DNA of 64,000 nucleotides from an uncultured Alphaproteobacteria bacterium (GTDB taxonomy: Bacteria > Pseudomonadota > Alphaproteobacteria > RF32 > CAG-239): the NCBI GenBank assembly GCA_944393695.1, contig CALYAY010000002.1:112892-176891 (forward strand), in the 5' to 3' direction. The translations under genes were made by a program, and so were the position numbers. Numbering within the stretch: position 1 is the first letter of the stretch; each line of letters begins with the position of its first letter. Below, piece after piece: positions 27,857 to 33,529 of this stretch. Below the pieces are notes generated by a model. That model did no database searches, was not told the origin of the DNA, and saw only the letters and a list, made by a program, of their open reading frames with translations.

Positions 27857-30169
27857 TTACTTACTTTCCCTTTTATCAAACGGATTTTTCTCCACATCTC
27901 CTGTCTGGCTGAAAGCATTTTCATCCAGCCACCATTCATCATTTTCCAAAACATCCGCCGTTTTGGCTGCCGGCTCGTTCACAACCACGGTCACCGGCTC
28001 CTCAAAATCATCGTCTTCGTGCCGGATTTCTGCCTCTTCCGCCGGTTCAGCGGAAACAACTCCCGCTTCCGGAACAATGCTTTCGTCTTCCCCCTTGTCA
28101 TTTTTTTCCGACGACGGCGCTGCCGGAACATTCTGCATATTTCTGCCGGCTGATAAATCCTCATCCAGAAAATATTTAACCGGCTTTTGCGACAAAACAT
28201 TCAACCGGGCATTACGGCTATAACATTCCGCATCAACCCACAACGGCAGATTATAAAATCCTTCTGCCAACAACACATGCACATTCCGGTCAACGCCTTT
28301 GTTTTCTTTCCGCCTTACCAGCTCATCGGCAATGCGGCGGAAATAATAAGCGTCAGAAATTCCCTGTTTCACTTTGATTTCGACCGGCAGCGCCGGCAGC
28401 TGCACCGACTTCAGTCCAAACACCGCCAACTCACGAAACTGCCGGCTGAGTTCAACATTATTGGCGGCAAAAAGCTGTTTATAGGTACAACCGCAAATAA
28501 TATTTTCCAACTCCGTCCGGCCGTATATCTCATGCATTCTCTTCAAACTGCCGGTCAGCAGCAGAAAACTCACGTTCTGCCGGTTCCCGGCCAACACGCC
28601 GCCGGCCAGTTCGCTGAACTTCGGCAACCTGTCCACCCCGTCAATAACAAACATCAGCGGCAACTTTGATACCGATTTAGACCTTTCCTGATTCTTATCA
28701 ATCAGCATATCCGTCATCAGTCGGGTCATAAAAGCGGCTTCCGGCGTATCTGCTCGCAGATAAGTCGTAACAACCATCCATTCGCCGTCATCTTTGTTTT
28801 TCATGCCCCGGGCATATTTCAGGGCATAATCACTTGCAGACGTGCGCTCTCTGATTGCCGGATTTTGAAAGATTCCCAAGACATCAATCAACATAGCAAA
28901 CAAACGTTCTCTCACCGCCGGCTTAACCCCGAAAAATTCCTTCAGAACATCTGCCGTCTTGCTGCCGTAATTAAAGAGCAGCGTCTCCTGAATCAAACTG
29001 TTCAGCAGCGTCTTCCAGCCGTCCTCATCCTGCCGCCGTTCAAAAACCATATGCCATTGCGTAAAATAATCGGAAATCATCGCCGGACACAATTCTCTGC
29101 CGCACCAATCCTGAGGAATTCCGTCCCAGCTTCCCACCGGCAGATAATTTTCAGCCGTCACCCCGTCTTCCGCAACATTTTTCACGGCTCCTTCAGCATA
29201 TTGCCGCGGCATAAGGGCATAATAACTGAGAGCAATGTCTTTGTCTTCAGCGGTCCAGCCCTTTCCGTCAATCAGCTTTCCCAGCAAATAATCATTGGCA
29301 TAAGCCTGCGCAACCTTAGCCACAAAAAAGCTCAAAATTCCCTCAACCAGACGGTTAGACAGCTTTCGCCAGTACTCATCCTCTTTTTCCGGCAGCAAAT
29401 GCGCCGCCAGACTTTGCAGATACACTTCTCTTTTTTCGCTTTTCTGCGGCATATCCTTGTGAGACAATGGATTCCACCTCGGCCAGAACTCACCCTTTTC
29501 CGGATTATCCGTCTTCATCCAGTCAAAATAAAAAACTCTTCCTTTTTCAAAACGATGTCCCGAAGTATACTGAGCCAACGCCCCGTTATCGTCAACAGCC
29601 ACAATGCTGACCCGGTTGCTCTCTAAAATCGACGGCACCGCAATGGTTGAAGTCTTACCCAGCCGGTCGCCGCCCCACACCAAAACCGACGCCGCCCGCG
29701 GCACACTCAGCGGCTTGCCCTCAAAACGCCCCAGAAACATCTGCGAATTGCCGAACAGCGGCATTTTTAACACATCTTCCCTTGCCGCAAAACGATTATG
29801 CCGCCGATACATCCAGTCAGACGACATTTTCCGCCGCCCGTATCCCCAGCCCGCCAGCAACAGAAAAACTAGCGGTGAAAGCCAGGGAATAAACAAGCCG
29901 ATACTGTAAGTTTTCGCCCTCATAAAAATTTTCAGCCAGATAGCATAAGCTTCAAACACAAAACCGGGCTCTTCCCTCACTTTTAACAAAAAACGATACA
30001 CCTGCTGTGTATTTTTCGCGCCAAAACCATACTCGGCATACTGGCAGGCAATCAGCACCAGCAGATTGGCCACCCAGAAATAAAGTATCGAACAAAGCAC
30101 AATCCACACCACCCGGAACCACCGGGAAAACCTTCTGGCTCTGATTTTTTTATCATATAAATTTTCCAT
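27857..30169 (-). CDS. Divergent type IV coupling protein-like membrane ATPase (VirD4/TraG/TraD/DotL superfamily)
   Basis: Two N-terminal TM helices. Then ...HNRFAAREDVLKMPLF...MFLGRFEGKPLSVPRAASVLVWGGDRLGKTSTIAVPSILESNRVSIVAVDDNG, a Walker A followed by the T4CP-typical block. The C-terminal signature is ...NRQNVSFLLLTGSLKRMHEIYG...ICGCTYKQLFAANN. It ends in a long acidic tail. Walker B is degenerate (VIDGVD). Confidence 0.6.
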   Translation of the reverse strand: MENLYDKKIRARRFSRWFRVVWIVLCSILYFWVANLLVLIACQYAEYGFGAKNTQQVYRFLLKVREEPGFVFEAYAIWLKIFMRAKTYSIGLFIPWLSPLVFLLLAGWGYGRRKMSSDWMYRRHNRFAAREDVLKMPLFGNSQMFLGRFEGKPLSVPRAASVLVWGGDRLGKTSTIAVPSILESNRVSIVAVDDNGALAQYTSGHRFEKGRVFYFDWMKTDNPEKGEFWPRWNPLSHKDMPQKSEKREVYLQSLAAHLLPEKEDEYWRKLSNRLVEGILSFFVAKVAQAYANDYLLGKLIDGKGWTAEDKDIALSYYALMPRQYAEGAVKNVAEDGVTAENYLPVGSWDGIPQDWCGRELCPAMISDYFTQWHMVFERRQDEDGWKTLLNSLIQETLLFNYGSKTADVLKEFFGVKPAVRERLFAMLIDVLGIFQNPAIRERTSASDYALKYARGMKNKDDGEWMVVTTYLRADTPEAAFMTRLMTDMLIDKNQERSKSVSKLPLMFVIDGVDRLPKFSELAGGVLAGNRQNVSFLLLTGSLKRMHEIYGRTELENIICGCTYKQLFAANNVELSRQFRELAVFGLKSVQLPALPVEIKVKQGISDAYYFRRIADELVRRKENKGVDRNVHVLLAEGFYNLPLWVDAECYSRNARLNVLSQKPVKYFLDEDLSAGRNMQNVPAAPSSEKNDKGEDESIVPEAGVVSAEPAEEAEIRHEDDDFEEPVTVVVNEPAAKTADVLENDEWWLDENAFSQTGDVEKNPFDKRESK

Positions 30170-30293
30170 TTATGCCCTTTTGAAATTTTTTTCATATTAT
30201 AAAACTTTTCCCAAAACTTCAAGCGCCTTTGTCCTCTCCGGAACACAAAAAAAGCCGCCGTTAGGCAGCTTTTTAGTTTAAATTCCCCGTCAG

Positions 30294-31583: not shown

Positions 31584-31651
31584 TTGCCTGACCTGCTAAA
31601 AAACAATCACATCCGCTATTATAGCCCGGATTTAAAACTTTTACAAACAAA

Positions 31652-33529
31652 TTATTTCAGAATACATTGTTCTCTTTCCGAACGCATCTTATTACACAAA
31701 GCCATCAAACCACCCTGTGGCGAATAAATCTGCAGCCGGTGATACAGCTTTCCCCCCATCATGACATCGTCTTCCCTGGGTTCAAAGCGCTTCAGTTCCG
31801 GATACTTGGCTTTCAGCCGCACCCATTCCGGCCGCATGTTGCTTTTCTCCAAGAAAGACCCCAGTTGCATAACCTTGCGACGATTAGGTTCTTCTCCCTG
31901 ATAAAGCTCAAACTCACCTGTCGGCTGAAAAACTGTTTTTTTCACCGGCCGGGAAACCGTCTTTAGTTGGGAAGAACGAACATTATCCTTGACCGGAACA
32001 GCCTCCCATTGCCTGTCTTCTTCTGAAGTTTTATTTTCGACCACTTTTTCCAGCCAGTTTTCTCCCTCGGCCCACTTATTAACCGGCTCAAGACGTCCGA
32101 TATTTCGCTTCGATTCCTCTTTAGCCAGATTTTCAGCCGCGGCAAACATTTTAACCCTGCCGTTATCAAAACCGGACTGAAGAGTATTGCCTATTTCCCG
32201 TGGTGTTCCGTTCAGCAGCAGACACTCAAAAGGCTGATACCCGGCATAAAAATACAATCCGGCAATCGCAGCCATCCGCTCGCTCATAATTCGGTCGCGC
32301 ATAATCTCCAGATTAATTTCCTTCAATTCCTTATCCAGAAGTTCGCCTTTCTGAACATAAGTCAACCTCTGTTTTTTCATCCGTGAAATCTCTTTTTTAA
32401 GAGAGGACAGCTGCGCGGCATTTTGCTGATAATCAGCTTCCGCAACCTGCACCACATCATACATCACCTCAATCTGCATAAATATAGCCGCTGCCAGTTC
32501 ATCGTAAATCTTCTGTCTCAGGGCGAACTGATCCTCCGGTCGCTTATTCTGCCGAAAAGCGATTATCGCGTTAATCAAAGCCTTTGCAGCCTGCGCCGAT
32601 TGCTCTTCCACGCTCTTCACATACATCTGATCCGATACCTTATAACCGTTAATCAGCAGGCTCTTGCTCTTATCATACTTCATAGCTAAATAGCGGCTGA
32701 TTGAAACATAGTCATAATTGCGCAGTCCCGCCTCGATTGATTTAAACTCCGGCCGGTTCAGCAATGCCGCCCGTTCATAAATTTCCGGGGTAACCCGGCG
32801 GTCAAAATTATCCAATTCATAAAAACGCCGGCCGCTCAGCTCCAGTTTATCATTTTTATTCCGCACCAGTCTACGGTATTCAATTACCGAATCAACCAAT
32901 GCCTCCCGCATTTCCGGCAGCTTGACCAAAACCACTTCAATTGTCTTTTTATATTCGTTTTCCTCTGAGGAAAGTTTCCCTTGCCGGCGATAAGTTTCAT
33001 TCAGTGCCGCCAGCTTTTTCTGTTCACGTGAAATCAGCTTGTTAATCTCCCTTATCTGATCCTCGGCATGCAGAACATCACCGTGCTCCTTCACCGCAGC
33101 CGTTGCCAGACTTTGCCCGGCTTTTTGCATAATCATGCCGCTGGCGGCATTCCCGTCCTCGGCCAGATAAGCCCCGGCATACATAATGGCATAATCCAGA
33201 ACCCTGACGCCCTTATACAAAGAATTACCGCTGAAAGGCTCATTTAACACATTATTGATAATATCCGCCGGTGTAATTCCCGGATTATCGGCATAAATTT
33301 TTTCTCTGAGATTATCACTTAACTTTCCGGTATTATACTTTACCGACCGGGCCATGGCATCATACACCGTCATCCGTCCCTTGACTTCTTCGGGAGCATC
33401 TTCATTCAGCAGACAGCTGCGCGGCGGCACCACATTCTCCTGTATCTTCTTGTCCACCGGTCCGCTGCCGGTTTCGCAGGCGGCCAGCAGCATAACCAGT
33501 CCGCAGAAACATATCTTCAATTTCAACAC
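31652..33529 (-). CDS. Coiled-coil lipoprotein with C-terminal SPOR-like peptidoglycan-binding domain
   Basis: A GTG start gives MLKLKICFCGLVMLLAAC, a signal peptide with an LAAC lipobox. A long helical/coiled-coil body follows. The C-terminus ...VMQLGSFLEKSNMRPEWVRLKAKYPELKRFEPREDDVMMGGKLYHRLQIYSPQGGLMALCNKMRSEREQC fits the SPOR pattern. Confidence 0.55.
   Translation of the reverse strand: MLKLKICFCGLVMLLAACETGSGPVDKKIQENVVPPRSCLLNEDAPEEVKGRMTVYDAMARSVKYNTGKLSDNLREKIYADNPGITPADIINNVLNEPFSGNSLYKGVRVLDYAIMYAGAYLAEDGNAASGMIMQKAGQSLATAAVKEHGDVLHAEDQIREINKLISREQKKLAALNETYRRQGKLSSEENEYKKTIEVVLVKLPEMREALVDSVIEYRRLVRNKNDKLELSGRRFYELDNFDRRVTPEIYERAALLNRPEFKSIEAGLRNYDYVSISRYLAMKYDKSKSLLINGYKVSDQMYVKSVEEQSAQAAKALINAIIAFRQNKRPEDQFALRQKIYDELAAAIFMQIEVMYDVVQVAEADYQQNAAQLSSLKKEISRMKKQRLTYVQKGELLDKELKEINLEIMRDRIMSERMAAIAGLYFYAGYQPFECLLLNGTPREIGNTLQSGFDNGRVKMFAAAENLAKEESKRNIGRLEPVNKWAEGENWLEKVVENKTSEEDRQWEAVPVKDNVRSSQLKTVSRPVKKTVFQPTGEFELYQGEEPNRRKVMQLGSFLEKSNMRPEWVRLKAKYPELKRFEPREDDVMMGGKLYHRLQIYSPQGGLMALCNKMRSEREQCILK

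Follow-up and report, generated by a model that had tools for sequence, protein, structure and literature searches.

Introduction

VirD4-type coupling proteins (T4CPs), such as Agrobacterium VirD4, Helicobacter pylori Cagβ and the VirD4 proteins of alphaproteobacterial megaplasmids, are defined by coupling a substrate to a type IV secretion channel, and they share two transmembrane (TM) helices, a P-loop nucleotide-binding domain (NBD) with an inserted all-α domain, and the motifs xVPSIL around Walker A, NPL and hhhhD...PK. Some of them have a dedicated partner that is encoded in an adjacent gene or bound at the tail of the protein, as is the case for Cagβ-CagZ and DotL-IcmSW/LvgA/DotN. Others are orphans of mobilisable elements (CloDF13 TaxB and integrative mobilisable elements) without mating-pore genes of their own, and there the relaxase and oriT are on the mobile DNA and the ATPase motifs are intact. 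Here we describe a homologue of these proteins, of 770 amino acid residues (aa), encoded in a 64,000-nucleotide stretch of an uncultured Alphaproteobacteria bacterium (hereafter the window; assembly GCA_944393695.1, contig CALYAY010000002.1, positions 112,892 to 176,891). The domain build and the motifs listed above are all found in this T4CP-like protein, but its Walker B glutamate is replaced (DD in the lineage, DG in the window), its all-α domain has an insertion of about 55 residues with the invariant motifs ANDYF... and YLPxGSW, and it ends in an acidic WW...NPF tail. Moreover, the gene is core-chromosomal and vertically inherited, has no genes for a type IV secretion system (T4SS) or a relaxase nearby, and is obligately paired with a gene for a pentapeptide-repeat protein (PRP). 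It resembles the orphans of mobilisable elements in having no mating-pore genes of its own, but differs from them in that there is neither relaxase nor oriT, the gene is fixed in the core genome across the lineage and the catalytic Glu is lost. The protein is clearly a T4CP by descent which fails two defining features, the DE of Walker B and the linkage to T4SS or relaxase genes, and which has gained an obligate new partner. This partnership recalls Cagβ-CagZ and the DotL complexes, but the PRP, a pentapeptide β-helix of 400 aa, has no relation to CagZ or IcmS/W, and the pair is known here from genes and models. No description of the PRP-T4CP pair or of a core-genome T4CP clade was found in full-text literature searches. 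The PRPs are a very large family with few known functions, which gains here a defined and testable partner, and the lineage that carries the pair is common in human and animal guts.

Identity of the T4CP-like protein

Three co-directional open reading frames (ORFs) lie on the minus strand of the window, as do all features described below unless otherwise stated: the T4CP-like gene (27857-30169, 770 aa), the PRP gene (30294-31583, 429 aa) and a lipoprotein gene (31652-33529, 625 aa). The gene rarA/mgsA (26510-27853; PF12002, E 3e-58) begins 3 nt after the T4CP-like gene. The first-pass annotation, made from the sequence alone, had read the locus as a divergent orphan T4CP homologue co-directional with a pentapeptide-repeat protein and a SPOR lipoprotein and without channel genes nearby, and the coordinates, Pfam and tblastn agree with this. 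Relatives were collected from the protein database (62 full-length T4CP-like relatives with 31-51% identity), by a profile search of 1.84 billion representative proteins (188 at E<1e-30), by a survey of one genome per GTDB species, and by a metagenome scan with a 7-sequence alignment. For gene order 88 loci were fetched, with about 30 more from metagenomes, and their contexts were viewed at ±10 kb.

The 770-aa protein is a true VirD4-type T4CP homologue of the inner membrane. It matches the Pfam family PF02534 (T4SS-DNA_transf) with 67.4 bits and E 1.4e-18 (cut-off 20.1), the TraG-D_C and TrwB_AAD_bind matches are slightly under threshold, and its orthologues also match PF10412 and PF12696. 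The coupling-protein motif blocks quoted in the annotation are present. The equivalog level of the NCBIfam VirD4/TraG models is not reached, the best score being 53 bits against a cut-off of 250 (CD1115 family), and the VirD4 models give 21-24 bits against cut-offs of 681-728. An AlphaFold (AF2) model built from 56 orthologues (pLDDT 85.7, pTM 0.78) has the T4CP fold, i.e. a RecA-like NBD with an inserted all-α domain, and its top Foldseek match is H. pylori Cagβ in the Cagβ-CagZ complex 8dol (E 1e-14, target TM-score 0.61), followed by TrwB (E 2e-7, target TM-score about 0.6) and DotL (E 7e-7), and then by HerA, VirB4 and TdpA. The top 50 structural matches consist of T4CPs, HerA, VirB4, TdpA and DndH; FtsK is not among them, and neither its FtsK_SpoIIIE profile nor its γ domain has a Pfam match at E<=1 in the protein. 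A search of the PDB with the family profile gave nothing at E<=0.01, so the link to solved T4CPs comes from the fold search alone and the family is highly divergent. The closest plasmid relatives, with 24% identity over about 80% of the protein (E 1e-38), are VirD4 proteins from megaplasmids of Erythrobacter and Sphingosinicella, both encoded at the end of virB4...B8-B9-B10-B11-virD4 operons. Since Pfam, the fold search and the phylogeny all agree on VirD4-type descent, the suggestion that the gene encodes an unrelated membrane NTPase is ruled out.

The two N-terminal TM helices that had been proposed are found at residues 17-45 (30035-30121) and 87-110 (29840-29911), with Kyte-Doolittle window means of 2.5 and 1.94, respectively, and both are helices in the AF2 model, so that the membrane anchor is of the T4CP kind, two TM helices joined by a short periplasmic loop. 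The all-α domain is about 55 residues longer than in the megaplasmid VirD4s, and 39 residues are invariant across the 56 orthologues. The acidic C-terminal tail (residues 661-770, 27860-28189), about 110 residues long as annotated, is defined by charge, alignment and model and has a net charge of -19 and a (D/E)WW(L/M)xExAF...NPF motif, which reads DEWWLDENAF...NPF in the window; residues 698-744 are predicted to be disordered, W747 is invariant and W746 nearly so. Orthologue tails have a median charge of -12 over the last 110 residues, and WW is present in 82 of 83. By analogy, this extended acidic tail may be likened to the docking platform of DotL and TraD.

Erosion of the catalytic site

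The Walker A motif or P-loop, G166-G-D-R-L-G-K-T173 (29651-29674), has G171 and K172 invariant in the 56 orthologues. The Walker B motif, M506-F-V-I-D510-G511 (28637-28654), is degenerate as first noted: in comparison with the hhhhDE relatives the catalytic Glu is replaced, and the region MFVID-G aligns with MMDEF in the megaplasmid VirD4s. Among the sequences of the lineage in which the gene is linked to rarA, Walker B is DD in 59 of 62 and DG in the window species. The DG is found in 15/15 population variants of this species, which differ at 8-17 other residues, and is therefore no assembly error. A survey of 160 distinct sequences found DE in every T4SS-linked or sister-clade protein, whereas the PRP-paired clade has DD (116), DN (8), DG (3 plus the window), ED (2) and, in early-branching members, DE (about 15). 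Furthermore, the P-loop is broken in six members of the paired clade (GAKKTD, GASKIN, STSKTS, GNNKTT, NSLKTD and NSLNPV). The member with NSLNPV, P0113, lacks the P-loop Lys altogether, and its intact 693-aa ORF is directly upstream of a rarA 85% identical to that of the window. Walker mutants of VirD4, TrwB and TraD abolish substrate transfer. The repeated loss of Walker residues under purifying selection suggests that hydrolysis is not what the paired clade is selected for. The designation 'coupling ATPase' thus holds for the coupling-protein homology, while an ATPase activity is doubtful because the catalytic Glu is lost across the lineage.

The pentapeptide-repeat protein and the conserved pair

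The PRP (30294-31583, 429 aa) is predicted to be cytoplasmic, since no TM segment or signal peptide was found in it, and it matches PF00805 in three stretches (E 3e-31, 106.8 bits, cut-off 20.2). It begins with an acidic N-terminus that has a W-x-AVS motif, followed by two repeat blocks with a helical insert between them, a K/E-rich coil and an Arg-rich C-terminus. The N-terminal W-x-AVS, the helical insert IEYLAKYYPHKLNL, the post-repeat segment LSECIITPQQIAQALGRVP...FGVWD...GKKVF, the K/E-rich coil and the Arg-rich end ...RxRGxxR are kept in 84 orthologues. The last 25 residues of the PRPs contain about 4 Arg, and distant PRPs also have basic tails (KRQRQRS, KKGRSSKVKVRS, DKKKK). Tandem pentapeptide repeats are common to this protein and to Qnr, MfpA, AlbG and the secretion substrates PipB/PipB2, and the Qnr, MfpA and PipB models match it weakly; however, it stays far below the equivalog cut-offs (22-37 bits against 240-500 for Qnr/MfpA), its repeat blocks are split by the conserved helical insert, and it has a family-specific C-terminal domain with the K/E-rich coil and, in the loci examined, always occurs with the T4CP-like gene.

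In 136 loci the T4CP-like gene is immediately preceded by the PRP gene. Where a locus extends far enough upstream the PRP gene is almost always there, the loci without it being truncated contigs, the low-coverage contig L135 and the inversion L012, and among the loci examined it never occurs apart from the T4CP-like gene. The median distance from the PRP stop to the T4CP start is 5 nt in the relatives, often with an overlap, compared with 69 nt between lipoprotein and PRP genes and 64 nt between T4CP-like gene and rarA. The pair occurs in at least four unrelated chromosomal contexts: besides the rarA-linked one, it is found between FTHFS and glycogen phosphorylase genes (L092), in the order pepN, secreted 373-aa protein, PRP, T4CP (L091 and L095-L107), adjoining lspA, pgi and mutL (L094), and in a further clade (L108-L118 and L147). 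The conserved core unit is the PRP-T4CP pair. The three-gene grouping of the annotation is therefore kept as a gene order, but its lipoprotein is specific to one lineage and the tight conserved partner is the PRP.

The PRP-T4CP gap of the window (30170-30293) is 124 nt long and contains a terminator-like hairpin with an 11-bp stem and a T run (30249-30274), followed by a TATAAT-like box; both are peculiar to the window genome among its relatives, and the two genes may be less tightly co-expressed in the window species than elsewhere.

In 11 related loci, but not in the window, the T4CP-like gene is separated from rarA by an extra gene for a protein of 423-451 aa. This gene is located at L003:12393-13676, L020:12286-13557, L045:12419-13756 and, in duplicate, L042:8282-9637 and 9634-10932, and occurs also in L004, L024, L025, L036, L087, L120 and L145. 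The copies are 23-33% identical between clades and have in common a zincin-like (F/V)YHExxHxLQ motif; they have no signal peptide, and sequence searches of Pfam and the PDB gave no match. This HExxH protein may serve as cargo or in an accessory role. L003, L004, L036 and L145 lack the SPOR lipoprotein gene, and the idea that the 427-aa gene in L003, L004 and L036 is a displaced lipoprotein gene was rejected, as it encodes the unrelated HExxH protein.

Conservation and selection

A T4CP-like relative is present in at least 106 GTDB species, all of them uncultured Alphaproteobacteria of gut, rumen or caecum, including CAG:495, Candidatus Scatocola and 'Azospirillum sp. UMGS63'. Ca. Scatocola is placed in the Rhodospirillales by NCBI and probably belongs to the GTDB order RF32. 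That the three-gene order is conserved in relatives, which had been left to be checked, is borne out by the 88 loci, where the order hsp33-recX-truA-GFO, lipoprotein, PRP, T4CP-like, rarA, rluC, asmA is near-invariant, and the lipoprotein-PRP-T4CP-rarA order is the same in the additional metagenome loci. Except where the HExxH gene is inserted, the T4CP-like gene is directly upstream of rarA throughout the loci of its lineage. In more than 100 species this syntenic core position is occupied by an undamaged ORF for 690-850 aa, and the GC content of the three genes matches that of their flanks. The RarA proteins of the relatives are 79-90% identical to that of the window, but the T4CP-like proteins 29-55% and the lipoproteins 28-47%. 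In 14 independent species pairs the dN/dS (Nei-Gojobori) is 0.068 for the T4CP-like gene, 0.076 for the PRP gene and 0.067 for the lipoprotein gene, and 0.062, 0.082 and 0.020 for the flanking rluC, asmA and rarA, respectively. All three are constrained, functional and fast-evolving core genes, and the module is chromosomal and vertically inherited in uncultured gut Alphaproteobacteria of the Ca. Scatocola / CAG:495 type. The proposal that the T4CP-like gene is the decaying remnant of an integrated conjugative element would accord with the degenerate Walker B and with the T4SS and relaxase genes not found nearby, but is refuted, and left with next to no probability, by the intact ORF in so many species, the dN/dS, the 39 invariant residues and the matching GC.

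Within one genome pair, the trio often has a dS several-fold above that of its flanking genes (L038/L055, L045/L087, L015/L016 and others), for example 2.26 for the T4CP-like gene against 0.16 for rluC, which suggests recombination or a swap of divergent alleles at the locus.

Channel genes and the sister clade

Pfam scans of nearly all ORFs of the window found no T4SS, Dot/Icm, Tra or relaxase families, and tblastn with VirB4, VirB8, VirB9, VirB10 and VirB11 gave no match, either in the window or across the paired loci (2.67 Mb); the statement that the window lacks such genes is thereby upheld. No virB gene occurs within ±10 kb in the 136 paired loci. The same tblastn detected virB8/9 in the sister-clade locus L117 and virB11 in L093, and according to Pfam, virB8 and virB9/cagX are 2 kb downstream of the T4CP gene in L117. 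All PRP-paired T4CPs form one clade in a neighbour-joining (NJ) tree, which has no support values, and the sister group of this clade contains L117 and proteins with canonical PPGTGKT and LDEF motifs. With a monophyletic paired clade and a T4SS-linked sister group, the transition between them can be reconstructed.

Some further observations were made in these relatives. Around the T4CP gene of the T4SS-linked sister clade, a gene order peculiar to that clade is conserved (L117:8327-13559 and L152:8841-13334), with a 387-415-aa membrane protein upstream and proteins of 212/319 aa and 141/144 aa downstream, none with Pfam matches. Downstream of the T4CP gene of the sister-clade locus L152, a gene (13456-13803) encodes a type-IV-pilin-like N-terminus (GRSMVEMLGVLAIIGVL). 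In one PRP-paired clade the T4CP-like gene overlaps at its end with a gene for a prepilin peptidase (Peptidase_A24; L111:12235-12948). And the P-loop of P0126, a distant relative with canonical T4CP motifs, is split by an intein-like insertion of about 160 residues (PPGC...HNTGKT).

The lipoprotein

The 625-aa protein encoded upstream of the pair (31652-33529) has a lipobox ending in Cys18, which is invariant in 21 orthologues, and its gene is found at this place in most loci of the rarA-linked lineage. It had been annotated as a coiled-coil SPOR lipoprotein. The lipobox stands, and the SPOR domain is supported at the family level, because 12 of the 21 orthologues match PF05036 (best 2.2e-6; the orthologue P0072 also has a precomputed match) and the model has the appropriate RNP-like topology; the window protein itself has no match at E<=1. 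This SPOR-like C-terminal domain (residues ~545-625, 31655-31897) is modelled as β-α-β-β-α (strands 553-559, 585-591 and 594-602, helices 562-575 and 609-617; pLDDT 84-94), and a disordered linker separates it from the preceding domain. The coiled coil, on the other hand, is better described as a domain like that of the TolC family of outer-membrane factors (OMFs): residues 55-479 (32093-33367) are all-helical, with the long antiparallel helical (α-barrel) repeat fold of the TolC family. The Pfam OEP family (PF02321) has no match in the window protein and matches two of 21 orthologues weakly (best 0.0027). The protein differs from the TolC-family OMFs, including the NodT lipoprotein subfamily (CusC, OprM, MtrE), in having no OEP match and no predicted β-barrel, there being no β-hairpins for an outer-membrane barrel in residues 55-479 of the AF2 model, and in its additional SPOR domain; we know of no OMF with a C-terminal SPOR domain. 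A barrel-less TolC-like helical domain fused to SPOR makes this an unusual envelope protein. The 373-aa exported protein of the P0107 clade was considered as a diverged form of it and was rejected (hhalign probability 0.2%), so the lipoprotein is a lineage-specific addition to the pair.

Possible functions of the pair

The identity and the evolutionary history of the T4CP-like protein are well supported. A core-genome T4CP under purifying selection, always paired with a PRP, with no channel genes nearby and with an eroding ATPase site, suggests exaptation. To the likeliest reading we give an even chance, namely that the T4CP-like protein, impaired in hydrolysis, is a docking hub for the PRP at the membrane and works independently of a T4SS. 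The protein would still bind nucleotide and still assemble at the inner membrane, would act there as a receptor or docking hub and not as a translocation motor, apart from any type IV secretion channel, and would keep the PRP at this membrane. The basic Arg-rich C-terminus of the PRP would probably be contacted by the acidic WW tail and/or the all-α domain; such an electrostatic contact, tail to tail or tail to all-α domain, can reasonably be inferred. In the rarA-linked lineage the pair would have recruited the exported lipoprotein with its TolC-like helical and peptidoglycan-binding SPOR domains, which would point to an envelope-linked output. Both the T4SS independence and the docking mechanism are what we infer from these data.

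Several points weigh against this docking hub. The putative contact between PRP and T4CP is deduced from sequence, and the monophyly of the paired clade comes from the NJ tree without support values. Asp in place of the catalytic Glu may still permit slow hydrolysis, and because the P-loop is intact in most members and the early-branching paired members keep DE, the ancestral pair was probably an active ATPase. The tblastn has limited sensitivity for small VirB components, and a virB/trb cluster may lie elsewhere in the genome, as the search reached the window and ±10 kb; it is known that the Rickettsiales scatter their T4SS genes. Moreover, the Arg-rich PRP C-terminus and the variable HExxH neighbour gene resemble features of T4SS substrates.

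These last points lead to the main alternative, which we hold only tentatively: the T4CP-like protein may be the substrate receptor of a T4SS encoded elsewhere, in the manner of scattered gene sets such as the Rickettsiales rvh, with the PRP and, where there is one, the HExxH protein as a translocated effector or a dedicated adaptor. Nothing of the T4CP architecture is missing, the membrane anchor and the docking-type acidic tail included, and the PRP C-termini are Arg-rich or basic in all clades, similar to the positively charged C-terminal signals that VirB/D4 substrates carry. The HExxH gene, variable and sometimes duplicated, comes right after the T4CP-like gene in the 11 loci, the sister clade is T4SS-linked, and the virB search was confined to the window and the surroundings of the loci. 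If such a T4SS exists, the pair would mark an effector or adaptor that is conserved in a lineage of gut commensals. However, known T4CPs require ATPase activity for substrate transfer, and here the catalytic Glu and sometimes the P-loop Lys have repeatedly been lost under purifying selection; no virB gene was found within ±10 kb of the paired loci in at least four contexts; and the PRP is as constrained as the T4CP-like protein and nearly always present, which fits an obligate partner better than a cargo. Between a repurposed coupling protein and a receptor for a distant T4SS, the evidence leans to the first.

An unlikely further proposal is that the pair is a self-contained, channel-free machine, in which a domesticated T4CP would hold a DNA-mimicking PRP at the inner membrane, perhaps at the septum, and would control a DNA-handling enzyme or the passage of DNA as a functional analogue of FtsK. 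Such a septal site would agree with the presence of the SPOR lipoprotein and with the location of the T4CP-like gene immediately before rarA.

A module for the division site or chromosome handling, which would be a specific form of the T4SS-independent reading, seems quite improbable. In it, a septal T4CP and the SPOR lipoprotein would hold a DNA-mimicking PRP that modulates, for example, a topoisomerase. SPOR domains bind septal peptidoglycan, and DNA mimicry with binding to gyrase is known from PRPs such as Qnr and MfpA; SPOR is supported in the lipoprotein family and the window PRP weakly matches the Qnr/MfpA models. FtsK is the sister family of the T4CPs, and the T4CP-like gene upstream of rarA recalls the E. 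coli gene order ftsK-lolA-rarA. But the lipoprotein and the adjacency to rarA are limited to one lineage, and the other paired clades differ in their neighbours and in the exported protein. In addition, FtsK has no Pfam match in the T4CP-like protein, and the likeness of the PRP to Qnr is generic repeat similarity at most.

Very doubtful is a decoy, or interference with conjugative elements or other invaders, by which a dead T4CP would poison foreign coupling proteins or sequester relaxosomes. The lost catalytic residue is compatible with this, as are the far faster evolution of the trio than of its flanks and its raised dS in several species pairs, which suggests allele exchange. But none of the three proteins has a PADLOC-DB match at E<=0.01, a fixed core position and near-universal presence are atypical for defence genes, and the dN/dS of 0.07, taken at the level of the whole gene, gives no sign of positive selection.

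Other features of the window

The remaining part of the window contains housekeeping genes: rpoB, the genes for L1, L10 and L11, nusG, mscL, H+-pyrophosphatase, asmA, an RluA-type pseudouridine synthase, a GFO-type oxidoreductase, truA, recX, hsp33, apaG, carD, ackA-pta, holA, leuS, rsmB, a MATE transporter and dnaB. A stretch at ~13000-17650, from nusG to tRNA-Trp (17668-17743), has a low GC content (33% against ~47-50% elsewhere) and short ORFs without a Pfam match, and may be a small island or a prophage remnant. On the plus strand, 35996-36343 encodes a 115-aa ORF without a Pfam match whose C-terminal half is Cys/His-rich and metallothionein-like (CNNPKCKNPDCTCGDHCTCDENHQCSENCHCHEGCTCGDDCRC...). 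The GC skew is negative in each 2-kb plus-strand bin of positions 1-64000 (-0.09 to -0.42), which places the whole window on one replichore arm with a C-rich plus strand.

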